A DNA stretch of 64,000 bases from assembly GCA_045803545.1 (NCBI GenBank), contig JBJMOW010000005.1, forward strand, positions 1,472,001 to 1,536,000, given 5' to 3'. Positions 29,645 to 50,221 of this stretch are shown piece after piece (the stretch's first letter is position 1; each line of letters opens with the position of its first letter). The position numbers and the translations under genes were made by a program. The DNA is from Gemmatimonadaceae bacterium (GTDB lineage Bacteria; Gemmatimonadota; Gemmatimonadetes; Gemmatimonadales; Gemmatimonadaceae). A model generated the notes under the pieces. The model worked only from the letters and a program-made list of their open reading frames with translations. It had not been told where the DNA came from and did no database searches.

Positions 29645-29681
29645 GGGAAGCGGGAAGCGGGAAGCGGGAAGCGGGAAGCGG
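29645..29681. repeat. (GGGAAGC)x5 heptamer array abutting the hisG start
   Basis: gggaagcgggaagcgggaagcgggaagcgggaagcgg. Confidence 0.95.
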
Positions 29682-29708
29682 ATAACGCGGCTACGAGAAT
29701 CGGGAAAT

Positions 29709-29736
29709 AAAAAACCCGTCCAGGAATCGGACGGGC
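29709..29736 (-). terminator. his attenuator terminator
   Basis: Minus strand GCCCGTCC-gattcct-GGACGGGT followed by a T run. Confidence 0.85.
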
Positions 29737-29774
29737 TGCGGAAGCTTTGTTAGTGGAGTCTGACTAGCTGATTT

Positions 29775-29864
29775 CTATAGTCTGACGTTCACGCGCAAGA
29801 GCGTCCGCGGCCCGAAATGGCCGTGGCGCGGGTGCGCATGGTTGGTGAAGGTGTTTGTCGTCAT
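29775..29864 (-). CDS. hisL: his operon leader peptide MTTNTFTNHAHPRHGHFGPRTLLRVNVRL
   Basis: 4 His in 8 codons; lies between the promoter and the terminator upstream of hisG. Confidence 0.8.
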   Translation of the reverse strand: MTTNTFTNHAHPRHGHFGPRTLLRVNVRL

Positions 29865-29872
29865 TGACCAGC

Positions 29873-29901
29873 ATGTTAACCGGCGGGTGCGATCAGCGCA
29901 A
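29873..29901 (-). promoter_or_regulatory. sigma70-type promoter for the his leader
   Basis: TTGCGC-N17-TAACAT, 8 nt before the leader ATG. Confidence 0.6.
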
Positions 29902-29924
29902 TAACCGGCGCGCTTTCCGTAAGG

Positions 29925-30066
29925 GACGACTCGTAACGGACGACTCGTAACGGGCGACCCGTAACCGGTAACCCGTAACGCGTTACCCGTTACCCGTTAC
30001 CCGTTACCCGTTACCCGCGTCCCGCTTCCCGCTTCCCGCTTCCCGCCTCCCGCCTCCCGCCTCGCG
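29925..30066. repeat. Compound heptamer array between the divergent his and aroF promoters
   Basis: GTAACCC/GTAACGC units, central palindrome GTAACGCGTTAC, then (GTTACCC)n, (GCTTCCC)n and (GCCTCCC)n. Confidence 0.9.
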
Positions 30067-30067
30067 C

Positions 30068-30096
30068 TTTACTTTTCCGCCGACATACTCTACCTT
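30068..30096 (+). promoter_or_regulatory. sigma70-type promoter for the aroF leader
   Basis: TTTACT-N17-TACCTT, 8 nt before the leader ATG. Confidence 0.55.
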
Positions 30097-30104
30097 CGGT
30101 GCAA

Positions 30105-30191
30105 ATGACCGCATTGTGGTTCGGAGTGACCTACTACGCTGGCTTTATCGGCTACTTGCCGATAGGGGGCCCCGGGTCGCGCGTGCGGTAA
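30105..30191 (+). CDS. Aromatic amino-acid leader peptide MTALWFGVTYYAGFIGYLPIGGPGSRVR
   Basis: 1 Trp, 2 Phe and 3 Tyr in codons 5-17; upstream of a terminator and DAHP synthase. Confidence 0.8.
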   Translation: MTALWFGVTYYAGFIGYLPIGGPGSRVR

Positions 30192-30227
30192 ATAGCAACG
30201 AGCAGGAAAAAGCGCAGCAACACCACC

Positions 30228-30266
30228 AGGGCCTTCGCCGAACGCGGGGGCCCTTTCTCTTTTTCT
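30228..30266 (+). terminator. aroF attenuator terminator
   Basis: AGGGCCTTCGC-cgaac-GCGGGGGCCCT followed by TTCTCTTTTTCT. Confidence 0.8.
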
Positions 30267-30324
30267 ATTTCGGCGCCCGCGAGAACGAGACCCGATCTCT
30301 CACCATCACTCGGGGATGTGTGTC

Positions 30325-31239: not shown

Positions 31240-31294
31240 TCTCACTCCCGTGTTACGCGTAGCGCGTCACGGGTAACGCGTAACCGGTAACGCG

Positions 31295-33798
<2,504 letters not shown>

Positions 33799-33821
33799 TT
33801 ACAGAAACTTCTCTGGTCAGC

Positions 33822-33920
33822 TCACGCGCTGGTGCACCACGCACGCACGCGCCGGTCCGTCTCTCCGAGAGAGGCGCACGGGCAAATGGGACACATGGTG
33901 TAGAGCGCGAATGTAGTCAT
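33822..33920 (-). CDS. Met/Cys leader peptide MTTFALYTMCPICPCASLGETDRRVRAWCTSA
   Basis: M-C-P-I-C-P-C cluster; ends 30 nt before the terminator that precedes metY. Confidence 0.7.
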   Translation of the reverse strand: MTTFALYTMCPICPCASLGETDRRVRAWCTSA

Positions 33921-40366: not shown

Positions 40367-40406
40367 TTACGGTTTTTGCCTTCTCGGCGGTTGCACGTTG
40401 GTCATG

Positions 40407-40450
40407 AAAAATCGAAGGGCCTCGTCCCCGTGTTTTGGGGAGAGGCCCTC
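40407..40450 (-). terminator. ilv attenuator terminator
   Basis: Minus strand GAGGGCCTCTCCCC-aaaacac-GGGGACGAGGCCCTTC followed by GATTTTT. Confidence 0.8.
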
Positions 40451-40509
40451 TTTCTAGTTGCAACCGAGCGCCTCTCCCGTTTAGGGGAAGAGGCGGTGTC
40501 TGTGAGTGA

Positions 40510-40611
40510 TTACATCGTGTTCAGACCAGTTCTCTTCCCAGTGCCAATAAGTCCCACCCCAATAAGCAGGAGGGACAAAATGAGACCGAGGAGGAGCTGG
40601 CTGCGGATCAC
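40510..40611 (-). CDS. ilv leader peptide (GTG start) VIRSQLLLGLILSLLLIGVGLIGTGKRTGLNTM
   Basis: Strong Leu/Ile/Val run; lies between promoter and terminator; start codon uncertain. Confidence 0.75.
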   Translation of the reverse strand: MIRSQLLLGLILSLLLIGVGLIGTGKRTGLNTM

Positions 40612-40658
40612 GTTAATGGTCGTGTCGATGTGCGAATGTGAATTGCGTCGTCGGCGGC

Positions 40659-40688
40659 AGCATAACCCCCGATCGAGAACGTTGTCAA
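40659..40688 (-). promoter_or_regulatory. sigma70-type promoter of the ilv operon
   Basis: TTGACA-N18-TATGCT. Confidence 0.65.
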
Positions 40689-40699
40689 GTGCGAAACAT

Positions 40700-40942
40700 T
40701 GCTAACGGAAAGCTGGACGCCGGAAACGGACAACGGGTAACGGTCAGCAGGAAACGGGTAACAGGCAACCGAACACAGGTTACTGATTACGGGTTACGGA
40801 TTGCGCGTGTCCATCAAACAGCGCCCATCTGATCAAAATGATGCGCTACCAGTAACCAGTAACCAGTAACCAGTTTCCCCGTTGCCCGTTGCCCGCTTCC
40901 CGCTTCCCGCCTCCGCCTCCCGCTTCCCGCTTCCCGCTTCCC
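40700..40942. repeat. Heptamer arrays between the divergent ilv and amt promoters
   Basis: Degenerate GGGTAAC-type units at about 40720-40800; CCAGTAA, GTTGCCC and GCTTCCC units at 40848-40942. Confidence 0.8.
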
Positions 40943-41042
40943 GAGTCGTGCGCGTCTTGCACTCATTGTGGCAGAATTGCTCAGTTGCTCGGTGATTTGT
41001 GCATGGCTGAGCTTGGGTTTGTGCAAAAGTTGCAAATTCTGC

Positions 41043-41071
41043 TTGACAACTTGAAACCAGCCGAATATGCT
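41043..41071 (+). promoter_or_regulatory. sigma70-type promoter of the amtB operon leader
   Basis: TTGACA-N17-TATGCT, 9 nt before the leader ATG. Confidence 0.75.
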
Positions 41072-41080
41072 TTGCCGCAC

Positions 41081-41188
41081 ATGATTCTCGCTCGCCGCGT
41101 CTCTTCCAATAACCCGGGAAACAATCGCCAGCTCCCACAGAACCTGTGGGACGTCTTCGATCGTTCCGGGATGAGCGCAATGAGATAA
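41081..41188 (+). CDS. Putative Asn/Gln leader peptide MILARRVSSNNPGNNRQLPQNLWDVFDRSGMSAMR
   Basis: 5 Asn + 2 Gln in codons 10-21; lies between promoter and terminator upstream of amtB. Confidence 0.7.
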   Translation: MILARRVSSNNPGNNRQLPQNLWDVFDRSGMSAMR

Positions 41189-41216
41189 GCAGCAACTCCA
41201 AGCTCCAGCTGTCATC

Positions 41217-41258
41217 GCCCCGCGTTTCGATCGAATGAACGCGGGGCTTTTTGTTTTT
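41217..41258 (+). terminator. Terminator in the amtB 5' leader (attenuator)
   Basis: GCCCCGCGTT-N11-AACGCGGGGC followed by TTTTTGTTTTT, about 40 nt before the amtB start. Confidence 0.88.
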
Positions 41259-41297
41259 CGCAGCAACAACTCTCACCCGTCGCGCCGGAGGAAAACT

Positions 41298-42806
41298 GTG
41301 AAGTGGTTCAAATGGAGCGCAGTGCTGGTCGTACTCGGTTTGCTCGCGTCGCCTGTTGCGTTGTTTGCGCAGGCGGCCGAGGCCGCAAAAATCGACTCTG
41401 TAGCAATACAGACCACCGCCAATTCCACGTCGATCAATTTCGTGTGGACGCTGATCGCCGGGTTCCTGGTGATGTTCATGCAGGCCGGGTTCGCGCTGGT
41501 CGAAACAGGATTCACCCGCTCCAAGAACGCCGGTCACACCATGACCATGAACTTCATGGTCTATGCGATCGGCATGCTCGCCTACTGGGCAATCGGTTTC
41601 GCGTTGCAGGCTGGCGGAATCGGCGCGCTCACGACACTCGGCGGCTACGACAAGCTCAACACCGAGTTCGCCGTTAACATCGGCGGTCACGCGTGGGGCT
41701 TGTTCGGGATGCAGGGCTTCTTCCTCACCGGCGTCGCGTACAACGCGTCGATCTTCGCGTATTTCCTGTTTCAGATGGTGTTCATGGACACCACGGCGAC
41801 GATTCCCACGGGCGCGGCGGCGGAACGATGGAAGTTCTCGGCGTTTTGCATTTTCTCAGTCTTTATCGCCGCCGTCATCTACCCGATTTACGCCAACTGG
41901 GTTTGGGGCAACGGCTGGCTCTCCGCACTCGGTAAGAACGCCGGGCTCGGCCACGGCCACGTCGATTTTGCGGGATCGTCGGTGGTGCACATGACCGGCG
42001 GCGTGCTCGCATTGGTCGCCGGCAAACTCATTGGTCCACGGCGCGGCAAGTACAACGCCGACGGAACTGCCAACGCCATTCCCGGACACAACATCCCAAT
42101 GGCGCTGCTCGGCACGTTCATCCTGGCCTTCGGTTGGTTCGGCTTCAACCCGGGCTCCACGCTCGCCGGCATGGATTCGCGCATCGCGGTCATCGCCACC
42201 AACACCATGCTGGCGGGAGCCGCCGGTGCGATCGCGGCGATGATCTACGTCTGGAGACTATACGGGAAGCCCGATCCATCAATGCTCGCCAACGGGATGC
42301 TCGCCGGTCTCGTCGCGATCACCGCGCCGTGCGCGTTCGTCACTGCGCCGTCGGCGGTTCTCATCGGCGCTGTCGCGGGAGTTCTCGTCTGCTTCGCCGT
42401 GGTCTTCATCGAGCGCAGGCTCAGGATCGACGATCCCGTCGGCGCGAGCTCGGTCCACGGTGTCTGCGGCCTCTGGGGCGTTCTGTCAGTCGGATTGTTG
42501 GCCGACGGCACTTATGGCGACGGGTTGAACGGTGTCGCAGGCAACGTGCGAGGACTCTTTTACGGCGACGCGAGCCAGCTCGGTGCCCAGCTGATCGGCA
42601 TCACCACCAACATCGTCTGGGTCGGACTCGCCGGCTACGCGGCCTGGAAAATCACCGGCTGGCTAACCAGTGGACATCGCGTATCGCCCGCTATCGAAGA
42701 GCACGGACTCGATCTGCCGGAGATGGGAGCACTCGCCTATCCCGATCAGGCCGATCTGTCGTCCGGAGTCGTGATCGCCACCGACGCCGTCCGTCCCGCT
42801 GCGTAG
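41298..42806 (+). CDS. amtB: Ammonium transporter
   Basis: GGAGG RBS; FMQAGFALVETG, DFAGSSVVHMTGG, GWFGFNPGS, GLVAIT, DDPVGASSVHG (both pore His present). Confidence 0.97.
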   Translation: MKWFKWSAVLVVLGLLASPVALFAQAAEAAKIDSVAIQTTANSTSINFVWTLIAGFLVMFMQAGFALVETGFTRSKNAGHTMTMNFMVYAIGMLAYWAIGFALQAGGIGALTTLGGYDKLNTEFAVNIGGHAWGLFGMQGFFLTGVAYNASIFAYFLFQMVFMDTTATIPTGAAAERWKFSAFCIFSVFIAAVIYPIYANWVWGNGWLSALGKNAGLGHGHVDFAGSSVVHMTGGVLALVAGKLIGPRRGKYNADGTANAIPGHNIPMALLGTFILAFGWFGFNPGSTLAGMDSRIAVIATNTMLAGAAGAIAAMIYVWRLYGKPDPSMLANGMLAGLVAITAPCAFVTAPSAVLIGAVAGVLVCFAVVFIERRLRIDDPVGASSVHGVCGLWGVLSVGLLADGTYGDGLNGVAGNVRGLFYGDASQLGAQLIGITTNIVWVGLAGYAAWKITGWLTSGHRVSPAIEEHGLDLPEMGALAYPDQADLSSGVVIATDAVRPAA

Positions 42807-42890
42807 CGGGAAGCGGGAAGCGGGAAGCGGGAAGCGGGAAGCCGGTAACGGGTAACGCGTTACCGGTTACGCGTTACGGGTTACGGGCAA
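42806..42890. repeat. Heptamer array between amtB and glnK
   Basis: (GCGGGAA)x5, then GGTAAC units with the palindrome GTAACGCGTTAC. Confidence 0.92.
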
Positions 42891-42927
42891 CAGATCTGAA
42901 TTCATTTTTTCACGCAACGAGGATCTA

Positions 42928-43326
42928 ATGAAACTCATTAGCTGCGTCATCCGCCCGGAGCGACTGGGGGCGGTGAAGGAAGCCTTGTTTCAAGCTGGTG
43001 TTACTGGAATCAGCATCAGCCGCGTCAGCGGACACGGCGGCGAACACGAGGTCGTCGAGCATTATCGCGGCTCGTCGGTCGTGCTCGAGTTCCGCGAGAA
43101 AGTCAAAGTCGAGATGGCGTGCTCGGAGCCGTTCGTCGAGCCGACAATAAGGGCGATTCTGTCCTCAGCTCGCACCGGCGAAGTCGGCGACGGAAAAATA
43201 TTCGTCCAGCCGCTGGAGCAAGTCATTCGGATTCGCACCGGCGAGCGCGACAACGCCGCGCTCACCCCCATTACCGCCGACGATGTCCAGCGCCGCGCGC
43301 GCGGCTTAGCGCTCTCAGCCGTTTAA
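42928..43326 (+). CDS. glnK: P-II family nitrogen regulator with divergent T-loop
   Basis: YRG, KVKVE, ARTGEVGDGKIFV..IRIRTGE; directly downstream of amtB. Confidence 0.93.
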   Translation: MKLISCVIRPERLGAVKEALFQAGVTGISISRVSGHGGEHEVVEHYRGSSVVLEFREKVKVEMACSEPFVEPTIRAILSSARTGEVGDGKIFVQPLEQVIRIRTGERDNAALTPITADDVQRRARGLALSAV

Positions 43327-43362: not shown

Positions 43363-44637
43363 ATGCACCGAACATCCGCAGTTGCTCGCGTATCGCCTCC
43401 CCCATCCCGAGCGGGGCCCTTGCTGATTCACCTTGTTGCATTGATGCTGGCGCTTCTTGTCGCCGTCGTCGCCAACGCGCAAGGCGTGAAGCTCCAGCCC
43501 AGCGATTCAGTCGCTCCGGCAGTGTTGAGAGCCGACTCCAAGTATTCTCCCGCCGACACCACCGCAAAAGTCGACGCGGCCGCAAAAGCCGACGCCGCCG
43601 CCGCGCTTCCCAAGTGGTTCGAGGATCTTGCGCTGAACGCCTTCGTCTCCACCGCCTACGAGTACAACACCAACCGCCCCGCTCCCGGCACCAACAGCTA
43701 CCGCGTCTTCGACTTCAACGACAACTCGTTCAACCTCGACGTCGCCGAAGTCGTCGTGCAGATCGCCGCATCGAAACCGAACGACGCCGGCTTTCGCGTT
43801 GACGTCGATGCGGGAAATTCGATTCCGCAGATCGCGAAAACTCAGGATCAGACGGCGACTCAGTTCGATCTCCAGCAAGCATTCGCCACCTACATCGCGC
43901 CGATCGGCTCCGGTCTCCGCTTCGACGTCGGCAAGTACGTCACCCACCTCGGGTACGAGGTGATCGAGGGTTACGACGGCTACAACGACAACTACAGCCG
44001 GTCGATTCTCTTCGGCTACGCGATCCCGTTCACTCACACCGGGGTCAAAGCGACCTACGCCTTCTCGAGCAAAGTCGCTGGCATGTTCGAAGTGGTGAAC
44101 GGGTGGGATCTGCTGCGCGACAACAACCGCTCGAAGTCGCTCGGCGCACAGCTCACGTTGACACCGGCAGCGCCGTTCAGCGTACTCCTGAACTGGATCG
44201 GCGGACCGGAGCTCGCCAACGACAATCACACCAAGCGCAACGTCTTCGACGTCGTCGCGATACTCAAACCGACCAATCGGCTGACGCTCGGCGTCAACGG
44301 TGATTACGGGATCGAGGACGGCACCAGTCGAGTGAATCCCGGCTCTGATGCGATCTGGAAAGGCATCGCCGGCTATGCCGTGCTCGGACTCAAAGAAAAT
44401 CTCTCCGTCGGTTTACGCGGCGAGACCTTCCACGACGACGGTGGCGTCCGACTCGGCACCGATACGAAAGCGAGATTGTCGGAAGCTACGCTCACACCAG
44501 TCTACAAGTTCACCAATCACGTACTGGCGCGCGGAGAAGTTCGCTTCGACAAGGCGAACCAACCAATCCTCGCCAAGCGCGGAACGCTGAGCGACAAGCA
44601 GACGACGATCGGCCTCAACGTGATCTTTGTGTATTGA
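43363..44637 (+). CDS. Outer-membrane beta-barrel porin (BBP2/OmpL-like)
   Basis: Signal-like N-terminus; GKYVTHLGYEVIE..NYSRS.LF..AIPFTHTG; terminal aromatic residue (VIFVY). Confidence 0.78.
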   Translation: MHRTSAVARVSPPPSRAGPLLIHLVALMLALLVAVVANAQGVKLQPSDSVAPAVLRADSKYSPADTTAKVDAAAKADAAAALPKWFEDLALNAFVSTAYEYNTNRPAPGTNSYRVFDFNDNSFNLDVAEVVVQIAASKPNDAGFRVDVDAGNSIPQIAKTQDQTATQFDLQQAFATYIAPIGSGLRFDVGKYVTHLGYEVIEGYDGYNDNYSRSILFGYAIPFTHTGVKATYAFSSKVAGMFEVVNGWDLLRDNNRSKSLGAQLTLTPAAPFSVLLNWIGGPELANDNHTKRNVFDVVAILKPTNRLTLGVNGDYGIEDGTSRVNPGSDAIWKGIAGYAVLGLKENLSVGLRGETFHDDGGVRLGTDTKARLSEATLTPVYKFTNHVLARGEVRFDKANQPILAKRGTLSDKQTTIGLNVIFVY

Positions 44638-44647
44638 TGAGGCCGCA

Positions 44648-45940
44648 ATGATCCAGGCCGACACACTCGCCCCGGTGGTGCTGGCGTTGGCGATCGTCCT
44701 CGCTTCGGCAAAGCTCGGCGGCGACGCCGCCGAGCGTGTGGGGCAACCGGCGGTTCTTGGCGAGCTCGTCGTCGGGGTGCTTGTCGGCAACCTCACCCTC
44801 GTTGGCGTGGACTGGTTCGGATTCATCACCACCAACGCCACCGTCGGAGTGTTGGCGCAGCTGGGCGCTGTCATCCTGCTCTTTGAAGTAGGACTCGAAT
44901 CCACGGTCCGCGACATGATGAAGGTCGGAGTGCGTTCGCTGGTGGTGGCTGTGCTCGGCGTCGTCACGCCGTGGGCGCTCGGCTGGTGGGTCGGTGCGCT
45001 GCTCCTCCCGCAGCAAAGTGTCTACGTTCACGCCTTCATCGGCGCGGCGCTGACCGCAACGAGTGTCGGCATTACGGCGCGAGTGCTCAAGGATCTGGGG
45101 TACGCACAATCGGCGGAAGCGCGCATCATCCTCGGCGCGGCGGTGATCGACGACGTGCTCGGCCTGGTCGTTCTCGCCGCTGTTGCCGCGTTCATTTCAG
45201 CCGCCGACAGCGGCGCCGGTTTATCGTACGGCGCGCTGGTGATCGTGCTCGGCAAAGCGATTGTCTTTCTGTTCGGCGCGCTGTCGCTCGGCGTCGTTTT
45301 CTCGCCGCGGCTATTCGGCTTCGCGTCACGACTCCGCGGAAGCGGTGTGCTGCTGGCGACGGCGCTCGTCTTCTGTTTTACGCTAGCGTGGCTGGCCAGC
45401 GTCATCGGCTTGGCGCCGATCGTCGGCGCTTATGCTGCGGGGCTCGTCCTCGAAGACCTGCACTACCGCGACCTTATGGCGAAGGAGGAGAGGCGACTCG
45501 AGGAACTCGTTCGACCGATCTCGTCGTTTCTGGTCCCGGTCTTTTTTGTTTTGATGGGAATGCGCGTCGACCTGAGCGCATTTGCGCGACTGGAGATCGT
45601 CGGTCTGGCGGCGGCACTCACCGCTGCGGCGGTGGTGGGCAAGCAGGCATGCGCGATTGGCGCGATTGGTGCGAAGCTCGACGCGTTGTCGATCGGAATC
45701 GGCATGATCCCGCGAGGCGAGGTTGGGCTCATCTTCGCCAATATCGGACTTACGCTGGTCGTCCGCAACGAGCACGTTGTCGATTCGGCGACGTTCTCTG
45801 CGGTCGTCATTGTGGTGATGATGACGACGCTGATAACGCCGCCCGCGCTGAAATGGAGTCTTGGTCGGGGAGCCCGATCACAAACCCTGAGGGAGGACGT
45901 GCGATGGAGGACGGAGGCGGCGAAGCGGGCGGCGGGATAG
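44648..45940 (+). CDS. Cation:proton antiporter (CPA2/NapA-like)
   Basis: LLFEVGLE, ATSVGITARVL, AAVIDD, GMIPRGEVGLIFA. Confidence 0.92.
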   Translation: MIQADTLAPVVLALAIVLASAKLGGDAAERVGQPAVLGELVVGVLVGNLTLVGVDWFGFITTNATVGVLAQLGAVILLFEVGLESTVRDMMKVGVRSLVVAVLGVVTPWALGWWVGALLLPQQSVYVHAFIGAALTATSVGITARVLKDLGYAQSAEARIILGAAVIDDVLGLVVLAAVAAFISAADSGAGLSYGALVIVLGKAIVFLFGALSLGVVFSPRLFGFASRLRGSGVLLATALVFCFTLAWLASVIGLAPIVGAYAAGLVLEDLHYRDLMAKEERRLEELVRPISSFLVPVFFVLMGMRVDLSAFARLEIVGLAAALTAAAVVGKQACAIGAIGAKLDALSIGIGMIPRGEVGLIFANIGLTLVVRNEHVVDSATFSAVVIVVMMTTLITPPALKWSLGRGARSQTLREDVRWRTEAAKRAAG

Positions 45941-45946
45941 CGGAGT

Positions 45947-46050
45947 GACCCGTAGCGCGTAACCCGTAACGCGTAACCGGTAACGCGTTACCCGTTACCC
46001 GTTGCCCGTTGCCCGTGGCCCGTGGCCCGATACCAGTTACCAGTTACGGG
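45947..46050. repeat. Heptamer array left of the four-helix-bundle gene
   Basis: GTAACCC/GTAACGC, then GTTACCC>GTTGCCC>GTGGCCC>GTTACCA gradient. Confidence 0.9.
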
Positions 46051-46415: not shown

Positions 46416-46529
46416 GCCGAACCCTACACCGCAGCCCGTCCGGCGCTTCCATCATTTCCCCGCTCCAATCAGCGGAAATCTGGCCGCAGCTATCGGGCTT
46501 CGGACATCGAACTTCGGATGTCGGGCTCC

Positions 46530-46655
46530 GGGTAACGCGCAACGCGCAACGGGTAACGGGTAACGGGTAACGGGTAACGGGTAACGGGTAACGGGTAACG
46601 GGTAACGGGTAACGGGTAACGCGTTACGGGTTACGCGTTACAGGAAACGCATTAC
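46530..46655. repeat. Heptamer array right of the four-helix-bundle gene, including (GGGTAAC)x10
   Basis: Ten perfect GGGTAAC copies at 46551-46620, followed by GCGTTAC/GGGTTAC. Confidence 0.97.
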
Positions 46656-48417: not shown

Positions 48418-49826
48418 GACAGGCTCCGCACGTCTGCGATCGCTCCGGTCACCGCGGTCGCCGCTGCTGTCAGCGGACTTGCCAGGAAAGTGCGGCCGCC
48501 TTTGCCCTGGCGTCCTTCGAAGTTGCGATTGCTGGTGCTAACCGCGCTCTGGCCCGGCGCGAGCTGATCGCCGTTCATCGCAATGCACATCGAGCAGCCT
48601 GCTTCACGCCATTCTGCGCCGGCTTCCTTGAACACTCGGTCGAGCCCTTCCGCTTCTGCCTGACTTTTGACATTGCGCGAGCCGGGCACGACCAGCATCC
48701 GCACTCCGGGTGCAACCCGACGTCCACGCATTACCGTTGCCGCCTCGCGCAGATCGGAGATACGCGAGTTAGTACAGCTCCCCACGAACACCACGTCGAC
48801 AGCGCGGCCGAGCAGTGCCTGCCCCGGCTCGAGCGCCATGTAGCGGAGCGCCTTGTCGAGATCGGCGCGCTCGGTCCCGCTCGCCGCAGAGTCGGGGTCA
48901 GGAACACGTCCGTCGATGGGAATCGCCATCGACGGGTTGGTGCCGAAAGTAATCATTGGAGCCAGGCTGTCTGCCCGCAGATTCAGCGTGCGATCGTACG
49001 ACGCGTCATCGTCGCTGACGAGTTGCCGCCAGCGATCGACCGCACCATCCCAGTCGCCGCCCGCCGGCGCAAACGGCCGGCCGGCTATGTACTCGGCAGT
49101 CGTGTCGTCGGGCGCAATGAGGCCGGCGCGCGCGCCTGCCTCGATCGACATGTTGCAGATGGTCATCCGGTTTTCCATCCCTAGCGCGCGAATCGCTGAA
49201 CCGGTGTACTCGAGCACGTGTCCGGTTGCGCCCCCGACGCCGATCCTGGCGATGATGGCGAGGATGATGTCCTTTGCCGTAACCCCGGGAGGAAGCGTTC
49301 CATCGATGGACAGCTGCATGCTGCGCGGCTTGCGCTGCAGCAGCGTCTGGGTTGCGAGAACGTAGCCCACTTCCGACGTCCCGATTCCAAACGCCAGCGC
49401 GCCAAACGCGCCGTGGGTGCTGGTGTGACTGTCACCGCAGACGATGGTCATGCCCGGCTGTGTAAGCCCCTGCTCCGGTCCGATGACGTGAACGATTCCC
49501 TGCCGACTGTCTTCGAGTCCGAACAGGCTAATGCCGAATTCGTCGCAGTTCGTCTCAAGCTGCGTGAGCTGCGCCGCCGCCTGGGAATCGAGCACCTGCA
49601 GACGGCCATGCGCCCGGGGCGTCGTCGGCGTCGAATGATCCATCGTCGCCAGCGTCAGCTCGGGTCGCCGCACCCCAACACCGCGACGCCGCAACTCGGC
49701 GAACGCCTGCGGCGACGTCACCTCGTGCACGAGATGCAGATCGACGTAAAGTACCGCCGGCGTGCTCTCGGTCTCGGCCCGAGCGACGTGGTCGTCCCAA
49801 ATCTTGTCGACGAGTGTTTGTGGCAA
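48414..49826 (-). CDS. leuC: 3-isopropylmalate dehydratase large subunit (probable TTG start)
   Basis: (M)[62 protein letters not shown]. Confidence 0.95.
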
Positions 49827-49827
49827 A

Positions 49828-49950
49828 GCGGGAAGCGGGAAGCGGGAAGCGGAAAGCGGGAAGCGGGAAACGGGCAACGGGCAACGGGCAACGGGCAACG
49901 GGCAACGGGCAACGGGCAACGGGTTACGCGTTACGCGTTACGCGTAACGG
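49828..49950. repeat. Compound heptamer array filling the space between the leu attenuator and the leuC start
   Basis: About 6 GCGGGAA, 7 CGGGCAA, then GCGTTAC units. Confidence 0.95.
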
Positions 49951-49985
49951 AAAAAAAAAGGCCCCTCGACATTTTCCGGGGGCCC
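49951..49985 (-). terminator. leu attenuator terminator
   Basis: Minus strand GGCCCCCG-gaaaatgt-CGAGGGGCC followed by T9. Confidence 0.85.
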
Positions 49986-50009
49986 GTCTGCCGCAATTCG
50001 CGAGAAATC

Positions 50010-50087
50010 TTATACGCGCACAGACAGACCGCCCCTATCAACGAGGTTCGAAATAAGAATAGAAAGTCGGGAGCCCGTAGCGCGCAT
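50010..50087 (-). CDS. leu leader peptide MRATGSRLSILISNLVDRGGLSVRV
   Basis: 4 Leu, 2 Ile, 3 Val including CTT/ATT/GTT codons; ends 24 nt before the terminator. Confidence 0.7.
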   Translation of the reverse strand: MRATGSRLSILISNLVDRGGLSVRV

Positions 50088-50221
50088 TGAACGAATGTCG
50101 AAGCAGGAAACGCAAGCCGCCGTCTGCCGGTTGCGGATTGGGAATGTATTTGTCGCTAACGGGTCGGTCAAGCGTTGTCGGCGCAGACCCTCAAATAAGA
50201 ATCGTAGTTGCGGCTTGTAGC

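Follow-up and report, generated by a model that had tools for sequence, protein, structure and literature searches.

How does an uncultured Gemmatimonadaceae bacterium decide when to take up ammonium? This question is raised by a locus on contig JBJMOW010000005.1 of assembly GCA_045803545.1, where the ammonium transporter gene amtB is preceded by an Asn-rich leader. The window analysed is a stretch of 64,000 nucleotides of this contig, and all positions below refer to it. The host (genome G000) is a metagenome-assembled genome (MAG) of 3.7 Mb in 6 contigs, 93% complete, with a G+C content of 60%. Positions 41043-41258, upstream of amtB, hold a promoter, a short open reading frame (sORF), a hairpin within the sORF, an alternative antiterminator pairing and an intrinsic terminator. 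We propose, with moderate confidence and from sequence comparison, that this leader is a ribosome-mediated (leader-peptide) transcription attenuator of the trp/his type, in which Asn codons would be the regulatory codons and serve as a proxy for glutamine-derived amide nitrogen. Its components are as follows.

41043-41071, plus strand: sigma-70-type promoter TTGACA-17-TATGCT (-35 at 41043-41048, -10 at 41066-41071; 10 of 12 positions matched)
41081-41188, plus strand: leader sORF of 35 codons plus stop, with ATG at 41081 and TAA at 41186-41188; reads MILARRVSSNNPGNNRQLPQNLWDVFDRSGMSAMR
41097-41178, plus strand: segment 1:2, a long imperfect hairpin in the sORF acting as putative anti-antiterminator, including the inner hairpin 41131-41153; -33.8 kcal/mol
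41108-41125, plus strand: proposed regulatory codons Asn10-Asn11-Pro-Gly-Asn14-Asn15, with the invariant pair Asn14-Asn15 at 41120-41125
41156-41235, plus strand: putative antiterminator 2:3, 41156-41172 with 41212-41235; -23.6 kcal/mol
41217-41258, plus strand: intrinsic terminator 3:4, 41217-41226 with 41238-41247, T-run at 41248-41258; -20.9 kcal/mol
41298-42806, plus strand: amtB, ammonium transporter (Pfam Ammonium_transp, E = 2.7e-110)

A first-pass annotation, made from the letters of the window, had already described a promoter, a 35-codon ORF with Asn/Gln codons, a U-tailed terminator with a 10-bp stem about 40 nt before amtB, a pairing through which the region over the Asn codons can sequester another stretch of the leader, and amtB-glnK downstream. 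All of these were recovered, the two genes with Pfam support, and the antiterminator pairing that it had also described was found after a small coordinate correction. A promoter scan of 1.2 kb gave 2 promoter-like sites, where shuffled sequences would be expected to yield 0.3. The hexamer TTGAC[ATC] is present in 93 of the 97 homologues with sufficient upstream sequence. Transcription is predicted to start near 41078, which would leave almost no 5' untranslated region (UTR; ~3 nt) before the sORF in G000.

Reading frame, asparagine codons and genes downstream

A total of 167 leader stretches were collected, 121 of them unique, comprising 116 untruncated stretches and 5 cut by contig ends. The metagenome and genome-collection copies were retrieved with a search pattern in which the inner hairpin and segment 2 are prescribed. 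A terminator, defined structurally as a T-run preceded by a hairpin with a folding energy of at most -12 kcal/mol, was detected in 95 of the 116 untruncated unique matches. The other 21 consist of 14 chance matches in long ORFs and seven homologues, namely six with weakened or interrupted terminators or T-runs in addition to the decayed copy L225. The rows dropped from further analysis were the 14 chance pattern matches inside long ORFs, the 5 truncated copies, L225, which is frameshifted, and G508, which the pattern did not match and which was inspected separately. One copy from an unpublished genome (G505) was excluded from alignment A2 (98 copies), from the structure and parsimony counts and from the classification of downstream genes.

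Analysis of 93 terminator-bearing unique copies with enough upstream sequence, in which an ATG was sought 28-75 nt before the hairpin, in frame and open through it, revealed an in-frame ATG with an open frame in 92 copies, compared to 0 and 3 of 93 for the other two frames. The lone exception starts with GTG. The distance from ATG to hairpin is 45, 48, 51, 54 and 57 nt in 1, 13, 8, 40 and 31 copies, respectively; as all five length classes are multiples of 3, repeated insertions and deletions have preserved the frame. The stop occupies a common position in 89 of the 95 terminator-bearing copies (TAG 85, TAA 3, TGA 1). One further copy ends one codon earlier (TAG), and five, including G000, are 4-5 codons longer. 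The leader sORF is apparently translated, to judge from this coding behaviour.

A codon table of 101 copies anchored on the inner hairpin showed that the paired Asn codons, four and five codons upstream of this hairpin, are Asn in 101 and 100 copies, the sole exception being AAA. A third Asn, three codons further upstream, is present in 98 copies, and the hairpin-loop codon is Asn in 65. The leader peptides contain two to six Asn residues, mostly four, and Asn is their commonest residue (401 of ~3046, 13%), compared to 3.46% of the codons in the long ORFs of the genome. The codon AAT accounts for about 86% of Asn codons in the leader, against 35% genome-wide, where it is the minority codon.

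The pattern of substitution at these codons is distinctive. On a tree of 98 copies, parsimony assigned 0/0/7 and 0/0/11 changes to codon positions 1/2/3 of the Asn pair, and 17 of these 18 third-position changes are synonymous exchanges between T and C. By contrast, the neighbouring codons change at every position (11/8/29, 10/5/22 and 3/3/8), as does the hairpin loop (3/12/23). The third positions of the Asn pair hold pyrimidines only, save one A among 196 letters, whereas a nearby four-fold Pro site has G, C, T and A in 30, 24, 33 and 9 copies. Because the Pro site tolerates purines, their absence from the Asn third positions is attributed to selection against Lys rather than to mutational bias. 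In the 1:2 hairpin, the four A's of the Asn pair and the third base of its first codon are unpaired in an internal loop, and the third base of the second codon closes helix P3; RNA pairing thus offers no explanation for the frozen A's. On these patterns, the codon identity of Asn is under selection. Of Asn and Gln, which the first-pass annotation had proposed together, only Asn shows a conservation that RNA pairing does not account for; the near-invariant Gln codon lies in a stem and is fixed by the search pattern.

An invariant AAYAAY in an internal loop could also be read as a binding site. The leader would then be a protein- or ligand-binding RNA switch built on a terminator platform, such as an ANTAR target, a riboswitch or a T-box-like sensor of tRNA(Asn), with the AAUAAU loop as the site and an ORF that takes no part in sensing. 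The sORF is indeed wholly embedded in a conserved long hairpin and has no Shine-Dalgarno (SD) sequence, and protein-mediated antitermination at glnK/amtB terminators has a precedent in Geobacter, in the part of the source available (PMC2995071). We nevertheless consider such a switch unlikely, since 92 of 93 copies retain the start, the frame and the stop while the stop itself switches among three codons, and since the Asn third positions are restricted to pyrimidines though nearby free sites take purines, which is a codon pattern rather than a loop motif. A search of the 64-kb window with Rfam 15 models gave no hit at gathering score, in line with the absence of glutamine riboswitches that the first-pass annotation had expected, and at E<=10 the region 40700-41450 yielded only chance-level matches to unrelated families. 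The ANTAR domain (PF03861) had no match in G000, at 93% completeness, but none in the control genomes either.

Another alternative retains the coupling to translation but changes the signal, which might be general translation capacity, stalling at the Pro/Arg stretch N-P-G-N-N-R-P-L-P, or nascent-peptide arrest that senses a metabolite such as glutamine. Pro occupies three positions of this stretch and Arg is common in it, and Pro-codon leader ORFs reportedly act at the Mg2+ transporter genes of Salmonella. However, the Pro, Gly and Arg positions are replaceable (P77 S12 N6, G70 R23 and R91 L4 A3 among the residues in 101 copies), in contrast to the irreplaceable Asn pair. The codon following the pair encodes R, L, A, C, G or P, and the next one varies in its first two bases, with G fixed. 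The C-terminal half LWD-x-I-E-R-x-G is highly conserved, which would suit an arrest peptide, but the residues concerned are encoded by paired RNA; outside the Asn codons, the constraint on the sequence appears to act on the RNA and not on the peptide. Moreover, the penultimate residue is variable (S44 F38 L14 T3 H1 G1), some copies have 4-5 extra codons, and G508 has swapped the PQxLW hairpin for a different hairpin while retaining N-S-N-P-R-N-N, all of which is unlike known arrest peptides. A signal other than Asn therefore seems improbable to us.

The genes downstream speak to what the Asn-codon attenuator would report. Among 100 unique leaders, 10 have too little downstream sequence and 90 could be classified; all 90 precede a nitrogen-assimilation gene on the same strand, 10-140 nt away. 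The first genes are as follows.

30 copies: a second type of ammonium transporter, ~32% identical to the AmtB of G000
28 copies: P-II protein (GlnK)
15 copies: AmtB of the G000 type
15 copies: BBP2 porin, orthologous to the third gene of the G000 operon, with its own copy of the leader
2 copies: glutamine synthetase (GlnA)

This set has the composition of a nitrogen-limitation regulon, and it is the strongest argument that the leader reports nitrogen status. We hold with high confidence that the element is a conserved cis-regulatory leader of this regulon. The central proposal of the first-pass annotation, a leader-peptide attenuator with Asn codons on amtB-glnK, is thus supported by the conservation of the sORF, the Asn codons and the helices together with the nitrogen genes downstream. 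The conserved sORFs with hairpins that it anticipated before nitrogen genes of related genomes were seen in the host genus, with weak covariation. A reading in which the promoter, the sORF and the terminator are a self-contained small gene or small RNA, with amtB transcribed from elsewhere, is very improbable: the attenuated transcript of ~170 nt would be a discrete RNA, and attenuator RNAs and leader peptides with trans functions are known from Sinorhizobium in the excerpts available, but the leader stands in 90 of 90 cases before a nitrogen gene from one of five families, its conserved 2:3 pairing would be purposeless in a plain terminator, and neither reading nor the promoter scan made a distinct promoter evident in the 40 nt preceding amtB.

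In G000, amtB has a GTG start at 41298 preceded by GGAGGA and encodes a signal-peptide-like N-terminus. Two genes follow it.

42928-43326, plus strand: glnK, P-II protein (Pfam P-II, E = 2.1e-24)
43363-44637, plus strand: BBP2 (OmpL-like) beta-barrel porin (Pfam BBP2, E = 8.5e-73)

The porin gene is probably the third gene of the amtB-glnK operon. No Asn-rich sORF was found upstream of the second amt gene of G000. In three other copies (L033, L034 and L061, from G318, G051 and G124b, respectively), the interval between the terminator and glnK contains a short ORF similar to the signal-peptide part of the G000-type amtB, its first ~20 codons. This remnant-like ORF suggests that the leader-glnK arrangement may have arisen by deletion of amtB from a leader-amtB-glnK operon.

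The link between Asn and amide nitrogen was sought in the gene content of the host. G000 contains asnS (480 bits, above the cut-off), gatB and three genes of the AsnB type (glutamine-hydrolysing asparagine synthetase family) above the cut-off, whereas no glnS above the cut-off and no asnA were found in this 93% complete genome. Asn-tRNA could be supplied either by AsnB and AsnRS or by GatCAB transamidation. As both routes use glutamine amide nitrogen and no AsnA was found, charging with Asn is expected to be a proxy for nitrogen status. The first-pass annotation had invoked GatCAB, besides the supply of Asn and Gln, for this link; the dependence on glutamine stands, given the lack of a detected AsnA or GlnRS and the AsnB-type enzymes, and GatCAB is possible but not required, as AsnRS is present.

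Alternative RNA structures and the proposed switch

The leader is predicted to form two mutually exclusive sets of helices. In the 1:2 hairpin, the stretch CCCGGGA over the Asn, Pro and Gly codons (41113-41119) pairs with UUCCGGG (41164-41170). Segment 2 (41156-41172) is formed by the last sORF codons before the usual stop, and its alternative partner consists of the 5' arm and loop of the terminator. The terminator has a GC-rich stem of 10-11 bp, an 11-nt loop and the run TTTTTGTTTTT, and ends 40 nt before amtB; owing to the 11-nt loop, a simple terminator scan missed this stem, which a dedicated scan detected. Across the 98 copies, helices 3-5 of the 1:2 hairpin are 83-96% paired, the main 2:3 helix 96.9% and the terminator 95.5%. 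In all, 87.1% of the cells are paired for 1:2 plus terminator and 87.6% for 2:3, compared to 33-46% when the partners are slid by 1-3 columns. When folding was limited to the part of the transcript that emerges downstream of a ribosome stalled at the Asn pair, with the 3' arm of the terminator left out, the 2:3 antiterminator was the minimum-free-energy structure in 6 of 7 genomes. Taken as a whole, the leader does not fold significantly better than shuffled sequences (z = -1.75, with 8 of 200 shuffles at an equal or lower energy). That it is more than a chance arrangement is supported by its conservation across about 100 unique homologous leaders, and not by fold energy.

The spacing of these elements fits a ribosome-operated switch. 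Segment 2 starts ~31 nt past the second Asn codon, beyond the reach of a ribosome stalled there, and the usual stop comes immediately after segment 2, which places a terminating ribosome over that segment. The leader thus combines a conserved sORF, a codon cluster for a single amino acid, a terminator, and mutually exclusive helices with the stop next to segment 2, as attenuators do. The usual identity between sensed amino acid and operon product is absent, since the downstream genes encode Amt, GlnK, the porin and GlnA.

We propose that transcription would begin at the sigma-70-type promoter and that translation of the sORF would set in immediately. With an ample supply of Asn-tRNA(Asn), the ribosome would reach the stop and cover segment 2, and after its release the 1:2 hairpin would re-form; segment 3, left free, would pair with segment 4, and RNA polymerase would terminate ~40 nt before amtB. 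With charged tRNA(Asn) in short supply, it would stall on Asn-x-x-Asn-Asn in the 5' strand of the 1:2 hairpin, which would free segment 2 to pair with the 5' arm and loop of the terminator. The terminator would then come too late to form, and amtB, glnK and the porin gene would be transcribed. Translation itself, stalling, kinetic competition and the response to nitrogen are the steps that we infer.

A number of observations weigh against this mechanism. Equilibrium folds always keep the terminator, even with a ribosome masking the Asn codons or the stop, so any antitermination switch must be kinetic. Such kinetic switching is likewise accepted for the trp attenuator. Covariation is weak, with double changes at 13 and 4 pairs for the two structures, not clearly above slid or shuffled controls, as the copies are close relatives. 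With so few double changes, support for the structure rests on compatibility and on the lineage of G021, in which segment 2 has GAG for GAA and the interacting strands have changed to match, with C for U in segment 3 and G for C in segment 4. In the subset found by pattern, conservation of the inner hairpin and segment 2 follows from the search itself. Most of the sORF is paired as RNA, so that constraints on peptide and RNA are confounded outside the Asn loop.

Initiation and physiology pose further difficulties. The sORF ATG has no SD sequence, in contrast to the GGAGGA before amtB. Initiation would have to be leaderless-like in G000 and SD-independent in the copies with longer UTRs, which measure 30-60 nt in most cases. 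In the metagenomic copy L225, the sORF is frameshifted and the terminator weakened; this copy looks decayed. No Asn-rich sORF was found upstream of asnS or of the three asnB-type genes in G000. The latter lie near one another (G000:C4:286925-303961) in apparent polysaccharide-synthesis clusters, and the actual route to Asn is thus uncertain. Six soil metatranscriptome runs contain small portions of the stretch; in four of them, RNA contigs matched pieces of the amtB body only, two of them letter-perfectly, and gave no cover of 40967-41368, which makes them uninformative for the leader.

Occurrence of the leader and neighbouring loci

A scan of the genomes of 185,579 species with a pattern of the inner hairpin and segment 2 only revealed 43 loci, all in MAGs titled Gemmatimonadaceae, Gemmatimonadales, Gemmatimonadetes or Gemmatimonadota. 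A looser pattern yielded at least 120 stretches on metagenome contigs, 80 of which were taken in; the leader is thus present in soil metagenomes. By BLAST, it occurs in 33 of 109 genomes of the host genus, which is uncultured, with a maximum of three copies per genome. Outside this genus, no match to the leader was found at E<1e-10 by BLAST in 400 genomes of the family, and a covariance model built from the 98 copies retrieved only the host genus and one weak match from 150 other family genomes (77 genera), leaving 148 genomes of other genera without the leader; these negatives rest partly on unpublished genomes. Taken at the level of the genus, the leader suggests a nitrogen-scavenging regulon of two Amt types, GlnK, the porin and GlnA that is switched on by the ribosome reading Asn-tRNA charging, alongside or partly replacing control of the NtrC/sigma-54, GlnR, NtcA or ANTAR type, with the element spread to up to three loci per genome. 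We give this broader proposal slightly better than even chances.

The weak match outside the genus (G046, E = 2.9e-4) is a Phe/Tyr-rich leader that was matched via its similar terminator, and homology was rejected. This leader (L270, G046:C104, ~43060-43260, minus strand; ...S-T-F-T-Y-F-Y-F-W-P-S...), which is also rich in Trp, comes from a different genus of the family and stands upstream of a prephenate-dehydratase-like gene. Its terminator is of the same type, with a GC-rich stem followed by TTTTTGTTTTT, and from this example the attenuator design seems widespread in Gemmatimonadaceae.

The amtB orthologues of other genera in the order that were inspected (L003, L004 and L005; 57-77% identity) have no such leader. 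One of them, L004 (G027:C5, from another family of the order), follows glnA and has TGGCACGGTGTATGCT and several TGCAC repeats ~60-100 nt upstream. This region looks like a sigma-54 promoter with enhancer-type sites. If so, related lineages would use conventional control.

A further candidate element lies upstream of the promoter in the window.

41022-41034, plus strand: palindrome TGCA-N5-TGCA, 8 nt 5' of the -35 hexamer

A strict match with the identical 8-nt spacing is found in 22 of 97 homologous leaders, and degenerate or looser versions occur in others. The palindrome is a possible operator for a nitrogen regulator or other transcription factor acting on top of the attenuator.

The window also contains five further candidate attenuators.

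29705-29866, minus strand: candidate attenuator
30099-30270, plus strand: candidate attenuator
33760-33920, minus strand: candidate attenuator
40367-40690, minus strand: candidate attenuator
49950-50090, minus strand: candidate attenuator

Between them, they precede hisG, the gene for DAHP (3-deoxy-D-arabino-heptulosonate 7-phosphate) synthase, that for a Cys/Met PLP (pyridoxal 5'-phosphate) enzyme, ilvD-ilvB-ilvN-ilvC and leuC, and none of the five matched an Rfam model. The his leader (M-T-T-N-T-F-T-N-H-A-H-P-R-H-G-H...) carries its His codons on the 5' side of a hairpin and is followed by a terminator upstream of hisG. The ilvD-B-N-C leader has an sORF rich in Leu, Ile and Val, that of the DAHP synthase gene is rich in Trp, Phe and Tyr, and the Cys/Met enzyme leader reads ...Y-T-M-C-P-I-C-P-C.... 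The his and aromatic leaders, like the Asn leader, lie close to their own promoters. Hence the fitting codons and terminators bear out four of the five neighbouring attenuators listed by the first-pass annotation, whereas leuCDB has a terminator but a less obvious sORF. With a window so dense in leader-controlled amino-acid operons, the organism appears to make routine use of the attenuator design, which the Asn leader seems to have recruited for nitrogen genes.

Tandem arrays of heptamers (4-15 copies; CCCGCTT, ACCCGTA, ACCAGTA, CGGGCAA and others) occupy intergenic gaps that flank the attenuator-controlled operons.

29645-30069: heptamer array
31259-31344: heptamer array
40848-40943: heptamer array
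42803-42891: heptamer array
45938-46047: heptamer array
46529-46649: heptamer array
49826-49949: heptamer array

They often lie between a leader terminator or gene end and the start of the next gene, as in the amtB/glnK gap and right before hisG. These arrays are reminiscent of the short tandem heptamer repeats of cyanobacteria.

Significance and comparison with known systems

To our knowledge, textbook nitrogen sensing is performed by proteins (P-II/GlnD, NtrBC, GlnR, TnrA, AmtR, NtcA, NrpR), while a few lineages employ a glutamine riboswitch or an ANTAR regulator. If the proposed mechanism is true, a third principle would be added, in which the speed of translation at codons for an amide amino acid serves as the nitrogen sensor for amtB, glnK and glnA. 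It would further imply that attenuators can be put to use in responding to a nutrient globally, beyond feedback on a single pathway, and would give a first handle on gene regulation in the Gemmatimonadaceae, an abundant yet almost uncultured group of soil bacteria. The prediction lends itself unusually well to testing, since the loop that holds the Asn codons is unpaired and recoding them would leave the predicted helices untouched. Full-text literature searches found no description of an Asn-codon attenuator or of an attenuator on amtB, a provisional result as most subscription journals lay outside their scope. In the main text of a survey of premature terminators (PMC2965389), amtB, ammonium, glnA, asparagine and nitrogen go unmentioned.

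The closest parallel in terms of target genes comes from Geobacter sulfurreducens, where, in the part of the source available, GnfK and the ANTAR protein GnfR mediate antitermination at terminators upstream of nifH, glnK and amtB (PMC2995071). Going by this partial source, both systems place intrinsic terminators before glnK or amtB, overcome under nitrogen limitation in Geobacter and, by our proposal, in the present host. They differ in the agent, which in Geobacter is an RNA-binding response regulator without a leader peptide, compared to the conserved sORF of the Asn leader.

The glutamine riboswitches, namely the glnA RNA and the Downstream-peptide motif, are small ligand-binding RNAs of cyanobacteria and marine bacteria that contain no sensing ORF. 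They share with the Asn leader the principle of a cis-acting RNA leader that ties nitrogen genes to a metabolite carrying amide nitrogen. The Asn leader, by contrast, has an sORF as its presumed sensor, and no Rfam model matched it.

A different kind of parallel is offered by the mgtA and mgtCBR leaders of Salmonella, whose leader ORFs mgtL and mgtP reportedly carry proline codons, with termination that is said to be partly Rho-dependent. Two short leader ORFs are described for the Mg2+ transporter leader in the part of the source available (PMC3641672). As proposed for the Asn leader, the codons of one amino acid control genes that do not make it, and tRNA charging acts as a proxy. The two cases differ in the amino acid, the regulon (Mg2+ transport and virulence in Salmonella) and the lineage.

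In overall architecture, the Asn leader most resembles the classical attenuators of trp, his, leu, thr, ilv and pheA. They all have a promoter-proximal sORF with a codon cluster in segment 1, the helices 1:2, 2:3 and 3:4, a terminator immediately upstream of the operon's first structural gene, and a stop codon so placed that the terminating ribosome masks segment 2. However, the classical attenuators control the pathway of the very amino acid that they sense, whereas the Asn leader, which also lacks an SD sequence, controls Amt, P-II, porin and GlnA. Altogether, the Asn leader would represent a known attenuation mechanism with a novel sensed codon and regulon, and its novelty would be that the sensed amino acid is not the product of the operon.

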